Positions 17,685 through 25,086 of a stretch of 32,000 nucleotides of DNA are shown piece after piece (within the stretch, counting starts at the first letter, position 1; every line of letters starts with the position of its first letter). The DNA lies in assembly GCA_038833255.1 (NCBI GenBank), contig JAWBIX010000001.1, positions 1 through 32,000 of the forward strand, given 5' to 3'. A program made the position numbers and the translations under genes. Origin of the DNA: Nanopusillaceae archaeon (GTDB lineage: Archaea; Nanobdellota; Nanobdellia; Nanobdellales; Nanobdellaceae). The notes below the pieces were generated by a model. It made no database searches, was not told the origin of the DNA, and was given only the letters and a program-made list of their open reading frames with translations.

Positions 17685-17758
17685 GGGCCCGTAGCTCAGC
17701 CTGGTAGAGCGGCGGGCTCTTAACCCGTAGGTCGGGGGTTCAAATCCCCCCGGGCCCG
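17685..17758 (+). tRNA. tRNA-Lys (anticodon CUU), no encoded CCA
   Basis: Manual cloverleaf: GGGCCCG-TA-GCTC-AGCCTGGTA-GAGC-G-GCGGG-CTCTTAA-CCCGT-AGGTC-GGGGG-TTCAAAT-CCCCC-CGGGCCC-G (74 nt). The anticodon CTT is at 17719-17721. Has the T-loop consensus and is followed by CT, not CCA. Confidence 0.93.
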
Positions 17759-17791
17759 CTATTTACTAAAGTTTCCTTTAATAGTTATATT

Positions 17792-18517
17792 ATGATAAAA
17801 GTTGGTACATGTGGTTTTCCTATATCTAGAAAAAAATATTTTATTGAATTTCCAGTTGTAGAGTTAAATAACACTTTTTATAACATACCAGATTCTGAAT
17901 GGCTTAAAAAAATAAGAAAAGAGGCACCAGAAAATTTTGAATTTACATTTAAAGCTTTTCAAGGTATTACTCATGATACAAAATCTCAAACATGGAAAAA
18001 AGCAAATATAGATTATAAAAAACTAGAAGGAAAAGTAGGATTTTTAAGACCAACCAAAGAAGTATTTGAATTTTGGGAAAAAATGATGGAAATAAAGGAG
18101 ATATTAAATTCTAAAATAATTGTAATTCAACTTCCAAAGAGCTTTATTGATAATGAAGAAAATATCAAAAATGCTTTTGAATTCTTTAGCTCAATAAAAA
18201 AAGAAATAAAAATAGCAATAGAATTAAGAGGGTGGAAAAAGGAAAATATAAAAAAAGTTTGTGAAGAATTTAATTTAATACAAATAACAGATATAAATTT
18301 TGAATATCCGGCTCTTATTAAAGAAACAGGATATTATAGATTGCATGGAAAATATAATGAAAAAAGAATAATTTATAATTATAAATATTCTGAAGAGGAA
18401 TTAAAAAAAATTTATGAAAAAATACGAGAACTTTCTCATAAAGAATGTTATGTTATGTTTAATAATAGTTATATGTATAATGATGCAAAAAAATTTTTAG
18501 AAATAATTAATCAATGA
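17792..18517 (+). CDS. DUF72 (UPF0759) family protein
   Basis: 241 aa. IKVGTCGF......YF.EFPVVELNNTFY..P....W.......P.NFEF.FKAFQGITH is the typical DUF72 N-terminal pattern. Confidence 0.7.
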   Translation: MIKVGTCGFPISRKKYFIEFPVVELNNTFYNIPDSEWLKKIRKEAPENFEFTFKAFQGITHDTKSQTWKKANIDYKKLEGKVGFLRPTKEVFEFWEKMMEIKEILNSKIIVIQLPKSFIDNEENIKNAFEFFSSIKKEIKIAIELRGWKKENIKKVCEEFNLIQITDINFEYPALIKETGYYRLHGKYNEKRIIYNYKYSEEELKKIYEKIRELSHKECYVMFNNSYMYNDAKKFLEIINQ

Positions 18518-19278
18518 ATAATTATTTATTAAGAATATCTTATAATGGAGAAAAGTTTCATGGCGTAGTTCCTCAAAAAAATGTAAAAACTGTTTTAAAT
18601 GAGATTATTAATTTTTATAAAATAGATAAATATAGATATTCGATTGTTTCAAGAACAGATAAAGGAGTTAGTGCAAAAGAAAACTATTTAGTTTTGCAAA
18701 CAGAAAAGGAGATAGATTTTACAACATTTTTTCATAATGATATAAAAATTTTAAATGCATTTAAGTTAAAGGAATATATAAATATTAGAAAATTTTCTAC
18801 TGGAAAGAGATATATATATAGATTGCCAAAATCTCTGTTTGAGAAATTTTATAGACCAAAATGGATAATTTTTGAAAATAAAAAAATTGAAATATCTTCT
18901 ATTGAAGACAAATTTGATATAAAAAAATATATTGAAGCTTCAAAGTATTTTATAGGAGAAAAAAGCTTTCATAATTTTGCAAAAGGAAAAGTAAAAAATC
19001 CCATATGTAAAATAATTAAATTTGAAATATATGAAGAAGAAGATTTTTATATTAATATTATAGAAGGAAATAGATTTCTTTATGAAATGATAAGAAGAAT
19101 TATTACTTTTTTAATCTCTGTTGGAAAAAATTTATATCCATTAGATAAAATTAATTTAGTATTTTTAGGAAATTTAGAACCAAAACCTTTTCCCGCAGAT
19201 TCAAAATATTTGCTATTAGAAAAAGTTTATCTTGATTGGAAAAAGCTATATAGATATATTGAAAAAATAATTATATGA
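18514..19278 (+). CDS. truA: tRNA pseudouridine synthase A (TruA/Pus1-like)
   Basis: 254 aa. ISYNGEKFHGV.PQ and SRTDKGVSA (catalytic Asp motif RTDKGV). 4-nt overlaps with both neighbours. Confidence 0.75.
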   Translation: MNNYLLRISYNGEKFHGVVPQKNVKTVLNEIINFYKIDKYRYSIVSRTDKGVSAKENYLVLQTEKEIDFTTFFHNDIKILNAFKLKEYINIRKFSTGKRYIYRLPKSLFEKFYRPKWIIFENKKIEISSIEDKFDIKKYIEASKYFIGEKSFHNFAKGKVKNPICKIIKFEIYEEEDFYINIIEGNRFLYEMIRRIITFLISVGKNLYPLDKINLVFLGNLEPKPFPADSKYLLLEKVYLDWKKLYRYIEKIII

Positions 19279-20513: not shown

Positions 20514-20975
20514 ATGAAAAATAAAGAAACTTTAGAAATTTATTTAAAAAATAAAGGGATATCTCATGAATTTTTAAAATTTCAAGATGTATCTAAATCT
20601 AAAAATATAGATAATATGATAGATATTAATAAAGTTGTTAAAACTATTGTATTTGTTAATGATAAAAATGAACCAGTAATTGTAGTTCTAAGATCAATTT
20701 ATAGAGTTAATCAGAAAAAGTTAGCTAAAATTTTAAATGTTAAAGATATTAGATTGGCAACACCAGAAGAGGTTATTAAATATACTGGATATAAAGTTGG
20801 AGGGGTAGCACCATTTGACATAAATTTCAAAATATATATAGATAAAGAATTGTTAAATGAAGATATAGTTTACACTGGTGGAGGTGATGAGAGACATTTA
20901 TTGAAAATAAGAGTTGAAGATATAATAAAAAATAATAATTGTGAAATAATTGATATTCCAAAAAAGTCGGCGTAG
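20514..20975 (+). CDS. YbaK/ProX-type aminoacyl-tRNA deacylase (trans-editing domain protein)
   Basis: 153 aa. ..KTIVF......PVIVVLR....VN.KKLAK.........A.PEEV...TGY.VGGVAPF is the YbaK/prolyl-tRNA editing domain pattern. Confidence 0.7.
   Translation: MKNKETLEIYLKNKGISHEFLKFQDVSKSKNIDNMIDINKVVKTIVFVNDKNEPVIVVLRSIYRVNQKKLAKILNVKDIRLATPEEVIKYTGYKVGGVAPFDINFKIYIDKELLNEDIVYTGGGDERHLLKIRVEDIIKNNNCEIIDIPKKSA
20960..20965 (-). terminator. T6 tract (minus strand) directly after the GC-rich RNA island
   Basis: Plus strand AAAAAA at 20960-20965 reads TTTTTT on the minus strand, immediately 3' of ...GCCGAC. Oligo-T is the usual archaeal termination signal. It lies inside the last codons of the plus-strand YbaK-like CDS. 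Confidence 0.4.
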
Positions 20976-21015
20976 CCGTATTCATCATCCTTCAGGGTCA
21001 AGCCAACTTCCCCAT
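20966..21015 (-). ncRNA. C/D-box-like sRNA module (perfect internal CUGA/AUGAUGA K-loop, degenerate terminal boxes)
   Basis: Minus strand: AUGGGGA (21015-21009) - 13 nt - CUGA (20995-20992) - AGG - AUGAUGA (20988-20982) - 11 nt - CCGA (20970-20967) - C - U6. The spacings are 13/11 nt rather than the canonical 12/12, and the terminal boxes are imperfect. GUUGGC (21007-21002) can pair with GCCGAC (20971-20966) only on the minus strand, because the stem needs a G-U pair. Confidence 0.35.
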
Positions 21016-21018
21016 TAT

Positions 21019-21074
21019 TGTACCCTGCCCGGAGGAACTGGTTCATCAATCCCCAGTGCATGGCAGGCAGGGTA
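21019..21074 (-). ncRNA. H/ACA-type pseudouridylation guide sRNA candidate (single hairpin with K-loop and ACA)
   Basis: Minus strand 5'-TACCCTGCC|TGCCATGC|ACTGG|GGATTGATGAA|CCAGT|TCCTCCG|GGCAGGGT|ACA-3'. The lower stem is a perfect 8-9 bp (21066-21074 with 21021-29). The internal loop is 8 nt/7 nt, and the upper stem is a perfect 5 bp (21053-57 with 21037-41). The 11-nt apical loop can form G.A/A.G/G.A sheared pairs (21051.21043, 21050.21044, 21052.21042). ACA is at 21021-21019, 15 nt after the upper stem. Local G+C is far above the surrounding DNA. Confidence 0.55.
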
Positions 21075-21138
21075 TAATAATAAAAATAATCTTAATTTTT
21101 AATATTTTTAATTTTAGAAATTCCAAATATAAATCTAT

Positions 21139-21981
21139 ATGAATAATATTTTAGAGGAATATAAAATATGGTTAGAGTTGCAAGGAAAATCTAAAAATAC
21201 CATAAAAACTTATTCCATTCCTATAAGAAAATTTTTAGAATATCTTTCAAATATTTTTTCAAAGAATGATATAAATGTTGACTTTCTTAAAGAAAATTTA
21301 AATAAAAATTTAATAATAAGATTTCTTGCAGAAATTAAAACAAAGAAAAATTTGGATCCAAATTCTATAAGACTTTATATAAGATCTCTTTCTTCCTTTC
21401 TAAAGTTTTTAGATAGACCAGATATTATAAAAGATTTAAAAGTTCCAAGAGTTGATAAAAAATTACCAAAATATATTACTTTCGATGAATTTAACCATTT
21501 ATTAAGTTTTGTTAAAAAGAAAAGAGATAAATTAATTTTATTGTTATTATTTTATACTGGAGTTAGAGTGTCTGAATTGGTAAATTTAAAAAAAGAAGAT
21601 GTCTTAATAAAGGAGGGATTTATAAGAGTTTATGGAAAAGGTGGTAAAGAAAGAATGATCCCGATTCCTAAATTTTTAATAGAAGAATTGAATAGTTATA
21701 TTCAAAATCTAAAAGATGAAAAACTATTTAATATTTCCACAAGACAAGTTGAAAGAATAGTTAAAAAATATGCTAAATTAGCAAATATAAATAAAAAAGT
21801 AACCCCCCATGTACTTAGACATTCATTAGCTACAATGCTTCTATCTAATGGAGTTGATATAAGATATATTCAAGAAATTTTAGGACATTCTTCACTTTCA
21901 ATAACTCAAATATATACACATGTTATCCCATCTAAATTAAAAGAAATTTATGAAAAGGTTTTTGAAAATATAAAAGTTTAA
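21139..21981 (+). CDS. xerA: Tyrosine recombinase, XerA-like (archaeal Xer/integrase family)
   Basis: 280 aa. N-terminal SAM-like core-binding domain. Catalytic region with R (YTGVRVSEL), HVLRHSLAT, LGHSSLSITQIYTHV (the R..H-x-x-R..H..Y set). Confidence 0.85.
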   Translation: MNNILEEYKIWLELQGKSKNTIKTYSIPIRKFLEYLSNIFSKNDINVDFLKENLNKNLIIRFLAEIKTKKNLDPNSIRLYIRSLSSFLKFLDRPDIIKDLKVPRVDKKLPKYITFDEFNHLLSFVKKKRDKLILLLLFYTGVRVSELVNLKKEDVLIKEGFIRVYGKGGKERMIPIPKFLIEELNSYIQNLKDEKLFNISTRQVERIVKKYAKLANINKKVTPHVLRHSLATMLLSNGVDIRYIQEILGHSSLSITQIYTHVIPSKLKEIYEKVFENIKV

Positions 21982-22254: not shown

Positions 22255-22262
22255 AAAAAATC

Positions 22263-22334
22263 TGGACCCGCCGGGATTTGAACCCGGGATCTCCGGCTTG
22301 CAAGGCCGGCATCCTACCGCTAGACTACGGGCCC
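22263..22334 (-). tRNA. tRNA-Ala (anticodon UGC), no encoded CCA
   Basis: Reverse complement: GGGCCCG-TA-GTCT-AGCGGTA-GGAT-G-CCGGC-CTTGCAA-GCCGG-AGATC-CCGGG-TTCAAAT-CCCGG-CGGGTCC-A (72 nt). Anticodon TGC. The G3:U70 pair and A73 discriminator (alanine identity elements) are both present. Confidence 0.93.
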
Positions 22335-22368
22335 ATTATAATTTTTAATGAAAAAAATAATTAAAAAA

Positions 22369-25086
22369 TTAAGATACTATACAAACAGACCATCCACAAT
22401 CCATACACATTAAACATCCAGATTGATTTACTAATTTCTCACTATTACAATTTGGACATCTTTTAACATCATCAACTTCTTTTATATCTTTATCTAATTT
22501 TTTATCTAAAATCTTAATTTTTATGCTTTCTCCAGATTTTAGAGAATTGTACCAATTTGGTAATTCGATCTTTAACTCTTTCAAAATTTCAATAGTTTTA
22601 TTTTCAATAATTCCACTCTCAACCATTTTTAAATATTCTTCTATTCTTTTCTTACTTGCTTCTGCACTTGTATAATAAACTTGCTTTGTTTTGCAACCTT
22701 CTCTAAAAACAGTAATTCCTCTGCATTTTAGCTTATAAGCTAACATATAAGCTCCTAATACATCTTCCTTTGTCATCCAATTTGGCATATTTATAGTTTT
22801 TGATATTGTATTTGTAATCCATATTTGTGCTGCTGCTTGAGCTCTAACGTGATCCCACCATGGAATATCTAAAGCTGTTAGAAAAACTCTTTTTAAATCA
22901 ATAGGTATTTCCTCTATTCCCAATAAACTACCTCCATTTTCCGATATCTTTTTTAATATTTCTTCCTTATATAACCCTTTTATTTTTAGTTGTCTCTCCA
23001 ATTCTACATCAATATAATAAAAACTTCCTGCAGTAACTCTTTTTTCATAAACCAAAGCATATTGTGGTTCAATTCCAGATGATACGTCCAATAACATAGA
23101 TATAGATCCTGTTGGAGCTATTGTAGTCACAGTAAGATTCCTAATTCCGTATTTCTGAATTTCTTTAGCTAAGTAATCCCAATCTAATGTCCAAATTTCC
23201 CTTTTATAATATCCATCTACAGGCATTTTTCCATTTTTATATTCAGAGTAAATATAAAGTGGAAATACTCCTCTTTCTTTTGCTCTTTCAACAGATTCCA
23301 GCATAGAATAATATGTTAACCATTCTGAAACTTTCATAATGAATTTAAATCCGTCTTCAGAAGAATAAGGTATTTCTAAAGCATACATAGCATCTGCTAA
23401 ACCCATATATCCTAAGCCTATTCTTCTTGTAGCTTTTGTATTTTCTTCTACTTCCTTTACTGGATAGGTATTTACATCAATTACATTATCTAAAAATCTA
23501 TAAGCCCATTTTATAGTTTCTTTATATTCCTCCCAATCAAAATATGCTTTTCCATCCTTAAATTTAATCATTGCATATAAATTAATAGAACCTAAATTAC
23601 ATGATTCAAAAGGATATAAGGGTTGTTCTCCACATGGATTTGTAGCTCTAATTGGTCCTTTATAATTATAAAGTAAATTATTAGAGTTCATATGATCCAT
23701 AAACAAACATCCCGGATCTCCCGTCTTCCATGCCATATAAGCTATTTCTTCTAAAAGATTTCTTGGATTGACATAACTTACTATAGCTTCGGCCGGTATT
23801 TTATCTATATTAAAATTGCTATCTCCAGGAAATGCACAATTATATTTCCTTAATATTCTCGGATTTAATAAAGGATAATTTTTATTTTTTTCATAATATT
23901 CCCAAAAATCTGGAGTTATTAATACAGAAATATTAAAGTTTTCTAAAACTCCCTCTTTTTCTTTAGAATGAATAAATTTCATTATATCTGGATGCCAAAC
24001 TTCTAAAATACCCATATTTGCCCCTCTTCTCTTCCCTCCTTGTTTTACAACATCTGTGATAACATCTATTATTCTCATAAAAGAAACAGGTCCTGATGCA
24101 ACTCCAGCAGTCGAAGCAACAACATCTCCTTCAGGTCTTAAGAAAGAAAAATTTACTCCTACACCGCCACCAGATTTAAATATTAATGCCGCATTTGTAG
24201 CACATTCCATAATAGATTTCATATCATCATCTATTGGTAAAACAAAACAAGCAGATAATTGTCCTAATCTTGCTCCGGCATTAAAAAGAGTTGGAGAATT
24301 TGGTAAAAATTTTTTTTGAACCATTAAATTATAATAATTTAAATAATTATCATAATACTTATCGAAATCTCCGTTCTCAATTTTATTTAACAATTCCTTC
24401 CATGTAATTTTCATGTGTCCTCTTTCATTCAAATAATCATATAAATATTTCATTCTTTCTAAATGATATTTATTCCATTTTACCAAATATCCATTTTCTG
24501 TTTTTTTCAATCCTATTTTTCCTTCAAATTCTTCTGGATTAAAATCTTCTTTTGGTTTTATAGTTTGTTTCCCTTCTTTATCATATACTTCTGGATCATA
24601 CAATATATCTGGAATTACTATTAATGCTGCAACCCTTTCGAACATTTGTTTTGGTCCTTCTATCAATTTTCCATTTTCGTCTTTTAACAAGTATCTATCA
24701 ACCATCAATCTTATAGCATTAACTGAAAATCTTTTTGCTACTTCTTCTTCATAAAATTTTCCCAAAAGTCTTATTTTTTCTTCTCTAATTTTTTCCTTTT
24801 CTTTTCTATATGTTATATATTTCTTAGCTACTTCATAAAGGTCAAATTTTATTAAAGAATATTCCACAATATCTTGTATTTCTTCTACTGTCGGTATTTT
24901 ATCAATAAATTTTTCATCCAAAATCTTTAAAACAAATTCTGTTATTTTTTTTAATAATTCTTTATTATAGAATCCTGCAGCCAACATTGCCCTTTCTATT
25001 GCATATTCTATTCTATAAGGATCAAAATCTACAACTCTACCATCTCTCTTTATAACCTTTTTTACCCTTATGGGCGGATAAGACAT
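22369..25086 (-). CDS. nrdJ: Class II (adenosylcobalamin-dependent) ribonucleotide reductase with N-terminal ATP-cone and C-terminal zinc ribbon
   Basis: 905 aa. ATP-cone (VIKRDGRVVDFDPYRIEYAIERA). Catalytic core motifs (NSPTLFNAG, ACFV, SGGGVG, NPCGEQPL.P.ESCNLGSINL, TTIAPTGSIS). C-terminal CPNC...CLMCMDCGW. Confidence 0.9.
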   Translation of the reverse strand: MSYPPIRVKKVIKRDGRVVDFDPYRIEYAIERAMLAAGFYNKELLKKITEFVLKILDEKFIDKIPTVEEIQDIVEYSLIKFDLYEVAKKYITYRKEKEKIREEKIRLLGKFYEEEVAKRFSVNAIRLMVDRYLLKDENGKLIEGPKQMFERVAALIVIPDILYDPEVYDKEGKQTIKPKEDFNPEEFEGKIGLKKTENGYLVKWNKYHLERMKYLYDYLNERGHMKITWKELLNKIENGDFDKYYDNYLNYYNLMVQKKFLPNSPTLFNAGARLGQLSACFVLPIDDDMKSIMECATNAALIFKSGGGVGVNFSFLRPEGDVVASTAGVASGPVSFMRIIDVITDVVKQGGKRRGANMGILEVWHPDIMKFIHSKEKEGVLENFNISVLITPDFWEYYEKNKNYPLLNPRILRKYNCAFPGDSNFNIDKIPAEAIVSYVNPRNLLEEIAYMAWKTGDPGCLFMDHMNSNNLLYNYKGPIRATNPCGEQPLYPFESCNLGSINLYAMIKFKDGKAYFDWEEYKETIKWAYRFLDNVIDVNTYPVKEVEENTKATRRIGLGYMGLADAMYALEIPYSSEDGFKFIMKVSEWLTYYSMLESVERAKERGVFPLYIYSEYKNGKMPVDGYYKREIWTLDWDYLAKEIQKYGIRNLTVTTIAPTGSISMLLDVSSGIEPQYALVYEKRVTAGSFYYIDVELERQLKIKGLYKEEILKKISENGGSLLGIEEIPIDLKRVFLTALDIPWWDHVRAQAAAQIWITNTISKTINMPNWMTKEDVLGAYMLAYKLKCRGITVFREGCKTKQVYYTSAEASKKRIEEYLKMVESGIIENKTIEILKELKIELPNWYNSLKSGESIKIKILDKKLDKDIKEVDDVKRCPNCNSEKLVNQSGCLMCMDCGWSVCIVS

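Follow-up and report, generated by a model that had tools for sequence, protein, structure and literature searches.

To our knowledge, composite RNAs that guide both pseudouridylation and 2′-O-methylation have been described in the Archaea only from Thermococcales. The snoR9 transcript of these organisms joins a 5′ H/ACA guide (Pab21/Pf1) to a 3′ C/D small RNA (sRNA), sR9, and Northern blots of Pab21 in P. abyssi have revealed two forms, with and without the C/D part. Here, we analyzed a 32,000-nt stretch of DNA of a tiny archaeon of hot springs, a member of the Nanopusillaceae (positions 1 to 32,000 of contig JAWBIX010000001.1, assembly GCA_038833255.1; hereafter the window), which contains, between the genes ybaK and xerA, a G+C-rich element of a similar layout. 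We consider it likely that this element is a single composite guide RNA gene located on the minus strand, comprised of an H/ACA module and a double-guide C/D sRNA, and that all three of its antisense elements are directed to the 3′ part of the 16S rRNA of its own host, near the decoding site.

Related RNAs of the Nanoarchaeota have been described from Nanoarchaeum equitans. In the 16S rRNA of this species the modified nucleotides Am1408, Am1409 and Gm1508 have been mapped (Seistrup 2017, PMC5389701). A1408 was assigned to the D′ guide of the C/D RNA Neq sR13, which is complementary to positions 1405-1415, and G1508 to Neq sR18 (PMC5389701). Neq sRNA13 has the sequence GAUGAUGU-AGGUGGCUUGACU-CUGA..., and the region upstream of it is rich in A+T (Randau table). 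For Ca. Nanopusillus acidilobi, an sRNA whose D′ guide is directed to A1408 and whose D guide is directed to G1508 is predicted in Suppl. Fig. S4 of the former study (PMC5389701), which also states that Nanoarchaeota lack RsmA/Dim1. N. equitans has an H/ACA sRNA (Randau 2012); this single H/ACA RNA is predicted to target sites other than the one described below (Randau). In Pyrococcus, the H/ACA ribonucleoprotein (RNP) of Pab19 modifies 16S U1017 in vitro, a uridine in a U-G-C context that is connected with the formation of the A site (Muller 2008, PMC2377435). Judging from its position and sequence context, and not from a statement in that paper, U1017 of P. abyssi would be U1052 of helix 34 in E. 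coli numbering; the E. coli numbering was checked on the real E. coli 16S sequence.

A previous interpretation of the window, made from the letters of the DNA (the sequence-only reading), had placed a single-hairpin H/ACA guide, followed by a C/D-type module, on the minus strand of the G+C-rich element. Comparative data support both of these halves, and the proposed parts of the hairpin (stems, pocket, loop, and an ACA located 15 nt from the upper stem) are all present on this strand (Table 1). The set used for the comparison was composed of 10 distinct orthologous sequences, recovered by synteny, and it spans Nanopusillaceae metagenome-assembled genomes (MAGs), Ca. Nanopusillus acidilobi, Ca. 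Nanobsidianus stetteri and Nanobdella aerobiophila. Look-ups of YbaK homologs (95% to 56% identity) led to syntenic loci, all of which carry the RNA between ybaK and xerA, and look-ups of XerA homologs located it divergently upstream of xerA in N. acidilobi (CP010514), Ca. N. stetteri and N. aerobiophila (AP019769). An identical YbaK-like protein is encoded on MAG contigs filed as Nanopusillaceae archaeon. Opposite xerA, the RNA has a varying neighbor (ybaK, an AbiEii-like gene, genes encoding hypothetical proteins, or that of L10). Since this far-side neighbor differs in the named genomes, the conserved unit is the RNA-xerA pair. The element is kept in every relative examined. One near-identical locus (L003, GCA_039001175.1; protein P0132) is filed under the name 'Candidatus Aenigmatarchaeota archaeon', and its siblings are all labelled Nanopusillaceae; the former label is probably the result of a binning or labelling error.

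All 14 base pairs of the hairpin are standard pairs in 100% of the 10 sequences. The lower stem contains four pairs (of nine) with compensatory double changes (G-C to A-U, C-G to U-A, U-A to C-G) and a G-U change in one lineage; the upper stem is invariant, except for a G-C to G-U change found in two independent lineages. Covariation among relatives, by which the sequence-only reading had proposed to check its stems, is carried by the four compensatory pairs of the lower stem, with the upper stem contributing G-U changes only. None of 500 shuffles reached the observed values, and slid controls did not contain any compensatory pair. The same hairpin was recovered by RNAalifold without guidance. 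The G-U pairs would be A.C mismatches on the plus strand, and they fit the minus strand only. The fold of the minus strand has a z value of -3.3, with none of 200 shuffles equally stable. The plus strand of the island folds equally well, as that of any hairpin does, so the folding energy has no power to choose between the strands.

Conservation within the element is selective. The two strands of the pocket and the D′ guide show few changes or none, and the loop interior, spacers and flanks diverge, in lineages whose YbaK identity goes down to 56% and in three named genera. Within the K-loop, GGA...UGAA is invariant and the interior varies both in sequence and in length (11-12 nt). The ANA box, in the form of ACA, AUA or AGA, keeps its two A residues and its distance of 15 nt to the upper stem in all 10 sequences. 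According to the rules published for archaeal H/ACA RNAs, the lower stem has 7-9 bp, the ANA box lies at 14-16 nt and the second G.A pair is located 8-11 layers from the pocket (PMC4652768). The corresponding values of the RNA described here are 9 bp, 15 nt and 8 layers (5 bp, a G.A pair and two sheared G.A pairs), the last being the lower limit of the published range.

In every lineage, the C box is separated from the ANA box by 2-4 nt. The perfect CUGA-AGG-AUGAUGA module, noticed already in the sequence-only reading, occupies positions 20982-20995; its two boxes, with a short loop between them, are canonical, the D′ box being invariant and the C′ box nearly so. The spacers of 13 nt (D′) and 11 nt (D) agree with the guide length of ~12 nt expected of archaeal C/D RNAs. 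The flanking C-like and D-like boxes had been described as degenerate, which is correct for the window, and is confined to its lineage: the terminal boxes are AUGGGGA or AUGGAGA with CCGA in the clade of the window, AUGAAGA with CAGA in other lineages, and AUGAUGU with CUGA in the three named species. Since relatives carry AUGAUGU and CUGA, the degeneracy is a peculiarity of this lineage and not a property of the family. The D guide is identical in N. acidilobi and N. stetteri, and has diverged in the loci L013 and L014 and in Nanobdella. RNAalifold also indicated that the D′ guide can pair with the D guide (alignment columns 77-85 with 104-112; A-U, G-C, U.G, U.G, G-C and two U-A pairs), and this pairing is for the most part conserved. 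It might be either a coincidental by-product of the two targets or a self-masking of the guides.

A comparison with Rfam, also proposed together with the sequence-only reading, was performed using permissive thresholds. The best match of the window was snoR9 (RF00065; 33.8 bits, E = 2.4e-6), a sub-threshold hit in which the whole model was aligned. The search covered nine orthologous loci, and eight of these (the window and seven of the eight others) gave snoR9 as the sole non-tRNA family, with full-length alignments and scores of 27-40 bits. For the ninth locus, that of Nanobdella (L146), the listed hit was snoPyro_CD (33.3 bits) on the C/D half. A tandem of H/ACA and C/D guides had been considered unusual. 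Such RNAs are indeed rare, but the fused design has a precedent, since snoR9 (Pab21/Pf1 with sR9) of Thermococcales carries the same layout.

There is no rRNA gene within the 32-kb window, and the search for targets, which covered 16S rRNA, was carried out on a sequence (L137) from the MAG GCA_038894595.1, the same assembly that contains the RNA variant L009. The 16S rRNA gene of Nanopusillaceae stands alone, with no 23S rRNA gene nearby, and is directly followed by tgtA, encoding the archaeosine tRNA-guanine transglycosylase (L111, 7975-10721; L137, 2453-5248). This synteny makes the 16S rRNA genes retrievable from MAGs, and L137 was obtained in this way, independently of any fishing with predicted targets; another TgtA look-up (P0037) gave a locus without a 16S rRNA gene. 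In addition, metagenomes were scanned with the predicted decoding-site variant, which yielded more than 120 mostly unrelated archaeal 16S rRNA genes, five of them from Nanopusillus. The Nanopusillus genes were identified by the adjacent tgtA, the product of which shares 96% identity with its counterpart in a Ca. Nanopusillus MAG. The 16S rRNA gene of N. equitans was also fetched, using a Nanoarchaeum primer site, and the genome scan with this site matched N. equitans only.

The guides, whose targets had been left as unknown in the sequence-only reading, now have three predicted sites in 16S rRNA, namely A1408, G1508 and U1052. Complements of both C/D guides, as they had been read from the sequence, exist in 16S rRNA; archaeal C/D guides are expected to pair with rRNA over at least 9 bp. 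The D′ guide GUUGGCUUGAC forms 11 Watson-Crick bp with positions 1405-1415, with A1408 at the fifth position, and only 3 of 5000 shuffles were as good. The D guide of the window, UACGGCUAC, forms 9 bp with positions 1505-1513, with G1508 at the fifth position (50 of 5000 shuffles as good). The D guide of L009 itself forms 8 bp (338 of 5000 shuffles as good), the D guides of other lineages also reach 8 bp, and those of L013 and L014 have no match in the 16S rRNA of L137. The D′ guide and its target covary: at the position opposite nucleotide 1414, sRNA13 of N. equitans has G, facing C1414, and the RNAs of Nanopusillaceae have U, facing A1414.

For the H/ACA pocket, the best site is GGAGG-[U1052]-G-CAUGGC in helix 34, with 5+6 bp (4 of 5000 shuffled pockets as good). 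CCUCC of the 3′ strand of the pocket pairs with GGAGG (1047-1051), directly 5′ of U1052, and GCCAUG(C) of the 5′ strand is complementary to (G)CAUGGC (1053-1059). None of the retrieved 16S rRNAs contains the exact target predicted in the sequence-only reading, CGGAGGA-U-N-GCAUGGCA. The bipartite site for which an rRNA search had been proposed does exist around U1052, shifted by one register (GGAGG-U-GCAUGGC), and CGGAGGA itself occurs in 16S rRNA at ~1139 and ~672, without a following U or GCAUGG. The unrelated archaeal 16S rRNAs of the metagenome scan mostly have GGUGC, GGUAG or GGUGG 5′ of U1052; GGAGG was found only in the Nanoarchaeota set.

Some other complementarities were noticed. The sequence UUCCUCCGGG (window positions 21027-21036), composed of the 3′ strand of the pocket and three bases of the lower stem, has a perfect 10-nt complement, CCCGGAGGAA, at positions 1139-1148 of the L137 16S rRNA and a 9-nt one at 672-680, and no target U comes after either of them; in sequences so rich in G+C, this is probably a matter of chance. 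Two further pairings were tried and rejected. An antisense interaction of the pocket and lower stem with the 16S 5′ end CCUGCCGGAGG was discarded, the 5′ end in Nanopusillaceae being CCUGCGGGGGG, and the pocket does not fit the target of Pab21 (16S position 891, GGAAUUGGCGGGGG).

The gene, its structure, its conservation and its complementarities to 16S rRNA are observations made in this study. The 2′-O-methylation of A1408 and G1508 was shown by others in the related N. equitans, and both nucleotides may be expected to carry it here. In the mechanism that we propose, L7Ae would bind the K-loop and the C′/D′ (and C/D) motifs, Nop5-fibrillarin would methylate via the C/D half, and Cbf5-Nop10-Gar1 would dock on the lower stem and the ANA box. 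Pairing of the D′ guide with 1405-1415 would place fibrillarin on A1408 (helix 44), and that of the D guide with 1505-1513 would place it on G1508 (helix 45), which is probably methylated. The H/ACA pocket would bracket U1052 (helix 34) for Cbf5, leading to isomerization of this uridine. We infer the assembly with L7Ae/Nop5/fibrillarin and with L7Ae/Cbf5/Nop10/Gar1, the pseudouridylation of U1052, and the action of the two halves as one transcript. None of the RNP core proteins is encoded among the 20 window open reading frames (ORFs) that were scanned against Pfam, a search confined to the window. The positions of the features of the gene are collected in Table 1.

Table 1. Predicted features of the composite guide RNA gene and of its immediate surroundings (positions in the window).
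Feature	Position	Strand	Remarks
Whole predicted sRNA gene	20960..21074	-	115 nt including the 3′ U-run; H/ACA hairpin and C/D guide; G+C island, orthologs, Rfam snoR9
Putative TATA-like box	21095..21112	-	A+T-rich, tandem AUUAAAAA, ~21-30 nt upstream of the stem; read directly
Lower stem, 5′ strand	21066..21074	-	UACCCUGCC; pairs with 21021-21029
Pseudouridylation pocket, 5′ strand	21058..21065	-	UGCCAUGC; invariant in 9 of 10 sequences
Upper stem, 5′ strand	21053..21057	-	ACUGG; pairs with 21037-21041
K-loop, predicted L7Ae site	21042..21052	-	GGAUUGAUGAA, 11 nt, G-GA-UUGAU-GA-A; G/A residues invariant
Upper stem, 3′ strand	21037..21041	-	CCAGU; pairs with 21053-21057
Pseudouridylation pocket, 3′ strand	21030..21036	-	UCCUCCG; UCCUCC invariant in 9 of 10 sequences
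Lower stem, 3′ strand	21021..21029	-	GGCAGGGUA; pairs with 21066-21074, 9 perfect bp
ACA (ANA) box	21019..21021	-	15 nt after the upper stem; kept in 10 of 10 sequences
Terminal C box	21009..21015	-	AUGGGGA, degenerate in the lineage of the window; AUGGAGA, AUGAAGA or AUGAUGU in relatives
D′ guide	20996..21008	-	AGUUGGCUUGACC, 13 nt; GUUGGCUUGA invariant
D′ box	20992..20995	-	CUGA; invariant
C′ box	20982..20988	-	AUGAUGA; AUGAUGA, GUGAUGA or AUGAAGA in relatives
D guide	20971..20981	-	AUACGGCUACG, 11 nt; 9-bp match in 16S rRNA
Terminal D box	20967..20970	-	CCGA, degenerate in the lineage of the window; CAGA or CUGA in relatives
U6 run, likely archaeal transcription stop	20960..20965	-	Inside the 3′ end of the YbaK-like coding sequence of the opposite strand; sequence, Randau 2012

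Several observations weigh against the view that one RNA carries three functional guides. The match of the D guide is modest (p ~0.01-0.07), another 8-bp site is located around 16S position 544, and the match is lost in L013 and L014. The terminal boxes in the lineage of the window (AUGGGGA/CCGA) lack the second sheared A.G pair, a terminal kink-turn being expected of the boxes RUGAUGA and CUGA. At the H/ACA site both U1052 and G1053 are unpaired, which leaves one guide nucleotide beside the upper stem unpaired on each side, a non-canonical arrangement, and RNAalifold predicts two pairs closing the pocket (U.G and G-C), which would compete with the target. In Nanobdella the pocket is changed at two positions (UGGCAUGC/UCCUCAC); these changes could be either a decay or a covariation of guide and target. 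Finally, the Rfam scores are far below the gathering thresholds (34 bits for the window against 90 bits for snoR9; the threshold of snoPyro_CD is 45 bits).

The degenerate terminal boxes, the slightly irregular pairing of the pocket with its two additional closing pairs, and the changes in Nanobdella would also fit an RNA in which the C/D half alone is a guide, the 5′ hairpin being a structural or assembly element (an extra K-loop for L7Ae, a stabilizer) or an antisense 'chaperone' of helix 34. A hairpin of this kind may compensate for a weak terminal C/D kink-turn. Moreover, sRNA13 of N. equitans stands alone, with no hairpin upstream, and Seistrup et al. argue that such sRNAs partly serve to hold the rRNA while it is folding (PMC5389701). 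We nevertheless regard this explanation as rather unlikely. A purely structural hairpin would not require an ANA that is invariant and lies 15 nt beyond the upper stem in each of the 10 sequences, nor an internal loop in which both strands are frozen while the stems covary. The two parts of the pocket match lie, in the right polarity, on either side of a uridine (4 of 5000 shuffled pockets do equally well), and what would be the same site is modified in vitro by a Pyrococcus H/ACA RNP. In addition, relatives with canonical C/D boxes still have the hairpin.

Two independent genes that abut each other, with ends of their own or split by processing, and whose fusion is without function, would be a very unlikely arrangement. 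The two forms of Pab21 in P. abyssi could be cited in its favor, as could the fact that nanoarchaeal C/D sRNAs are often cut from longer precursors (Randau 2012); processing after co-transcription is, however, compatible with a composite gene. The 2-4 nt that separate ANA from the C box are too few for a second promoter, a T-run between the halves is lacking, and their order and spacing are kept in three genera or more, including loci with a changed gene on the other flank. That there is no RNA gene at all, the element being a chance palindrome rich in G+C, the remains of a coding sequence, a piece of a tRNA or an attachment site for the integrase next to xerA, or a plus-strand element, is scarcely conceivable: the locus does adjoin the gene of a tyrosine recombinase, it overlaps with short ORFs of both strands and the plus strand folds well, but an attachment site does not explain unpaired guide segments that are strongly conserved and match 16S rRNA, and the G-U pairs, boxes, ANA and T-run exist on the minus strand only.

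Specific candidates for the nature of the island were rejected as follows. For a tRNA, a tRNA half or an integrase attachment site, ARAGORN and Rfam revealed no tRNA-like element within the island. Protein coding is excluded by the loop and spacer indels among the relatives: the overlapping ORFs of 50 and 63 amino acids (aa) are broken by indels of 1-2 nt. An RNA encoded by the plus strand would be without boxes, ANA and T-run, and its G-U pairs would become A.C.

The composite guide RNA gene stands out from its surroundings by its nucleotide composition. A sliding scan of the window (mean G+C content 0.25) in 50-nt windows revealed three islands with a G+C content of at least 0.64. One of them (20955-21081) contains the sRNA, and so the G+C-rich island without a credible protein, as perceived in the sequence-only reading, is confirmed as one of the three strongest. 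The other two are tRNA-Lys(CUU) (17685-17759, plus strand) and tRNA-Ala(UGC) (22262-22335, minus strand), called with ARAGORN and Rfam, which have ~70% G+C versus 25% for the genome. In L013, the tRNA at the position of tRNA-Ala has a different anticodon-loop sequence. Also encoded in the window are an archaeal histone, ribosomal proteins, XerA and tRNAs of very high G+C content; this gene set and composition are characteristic of a hyperthermophile with A+T-rich DNA, whose structural RNAs are conspicuous by composition.

The YbaK-like coding sequence, located on the plus strand, stops at 20975 with TAG. The overlap of its last ~10 nt with the RNA's 3′ end, as anticipated in the sequence-only reading, amounts to 10 nt if the RNA is counted to the C at 20966, and to 16 nt with the U-run. 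Termination at oligo-T is known in nanoarchaea (Randau 2012). On the 5′ side, the motif ATTAAAAA or TATAAAAA is found again 21-24 nt upstream of the sRNA in relatives. The assignment of the TATA-like box (Table 1) is tentative, the whole spacer being A+T-rich, and it sits in the intergenic region common to the divergent xerA promoter. In all genomes examined, the sRNA and xerA diverge around a short A+T-rich spacer (window 21075-21141; L145 2443-2500; L146; L148), in which the three named species have the motif GATATAAAAATTTTAAAT in common. This spacer could act as a bidirectional promoter.

Other features of the neighborhood were also recorded. A gene of a stand-alone pseudouridine synthase of the TruA type (PseudoU_synth_1) is located at 18514-19278 on the plus strand, 1.7 kb upstream of the sRNA, within a conserved block comprising genes for DUF72, truA, methionine aminopeptidase, histone and ybaK. 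The ribonucleotide reductase located downstream has 905 aa in the window (22369-25086) versus ~1300 aa in the lineage of L013 (3724-5118), the latter with intein and LAGLIDADG domains; close relatives are polymorphic here for the presence of an intein.

The fused layout is conserved across the terrestrial Nanoarchaeota (Nanopusillus, Nanobsidianus, Nanobdella), and the Rfam model of snoR9 is too narrow to annotate this family of RNAs. The three predicted guides converge on the A site and decoding center of the ribosome (U1052, A1408, G1508). Their hosts, the genomes of which are tiny, no longer possess RsmA/Dim1 and are believed to time the folding of the 16S 3′ end through the binding of sRNAs; as two of the hosts are in culture, the RNA is a testable candidate for such a mechanism. 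An extension of the two-site model of Seistrup would be that a single scaffold recruits Cbf5 and fibrillarin and holds helices 34, 44 and 45 of nascent 16S rRNA at once, as an RNA-based checkpoint of decoding-center assembly in organisms without the near-universal checkpoint enzyme RsmA/Dim1; we consider this idea unlikely as it stands, and put it forward as a speculation. As a side reading, the fused layout might link the Nanoarchaeota with the Thermococcales, either as a derived character common to both or through a transfer.

Methylation and pseudouridylation guide domains are also combined in one RNA in the eukaryotic composite C/D-H/ACA scaRNAs, small RNAs specific to Cajal bodies, e.g. 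U85. In these, two-hairpin H/ACA domains are nested in the C/D termini, and the RNAs carry Cajal-body signals and have snRNA targets; we know of no sequence or architectural homology between them and the RNA of the window. The likeness to snoR9 concerns the order of the elements (a hairpin with K-loop, ACA, a few nucleotides, C, D′ guide, D′, C′, D guide, D), the K-loop (snoR9 consensus GGGGA-N4-UGAACC) and the total length (~115-128 nt). The two differ in the phylum of the host and in all three guides, Pab21 guiding modification of 16S position 891 and not of helix 34, and the terminal C/D boxes are degenerate in the lineage of the window. The window RNA scores below the 90-bit threshold of snoR9, and it departs from the consensus of this family in its pocket as well as in both spacers.

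As in the sRNA predicted for N. acidilobi (PMC5389701), the window RNA and the RNA of N. acidilobi itself (L145) both encode a D′ guide directed to A1408 and a D guide directed to G1508. The C/D half is known in substance, since it matches the prediction of Seistrup, which is encoded by the ortholog L145. Neq sRNA13 shares with the relatives of the window RNA the AUGAUGU C box, and its D′ guide is almost the same, the single change making up for the different nucleotide 1414 of 16S rRNA; unlike the window RNA, it lacks an upstream hairpin and its D guide is directed to A1534, not to G1508. Pab19/Pfu19 have the same predicted target uridine as the H/ACA pocket and a slightly irregular pairing beside it, but Pab19 is a stand-alone RNA with a 5′ guide strand of unusual length (15 nt), an extra 5′ stem-loop and no C/D fusion. 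The RNA is thus not categorically new, given the architecture of snoR9, the published prediction for the methylation half and a predicted pseudouridylation site matching that of Pab19. Its new part appears to be the helix-34 H/ACA hairpin fused to an sR13-type sRNA across terrestrial Nanoarchaeota.

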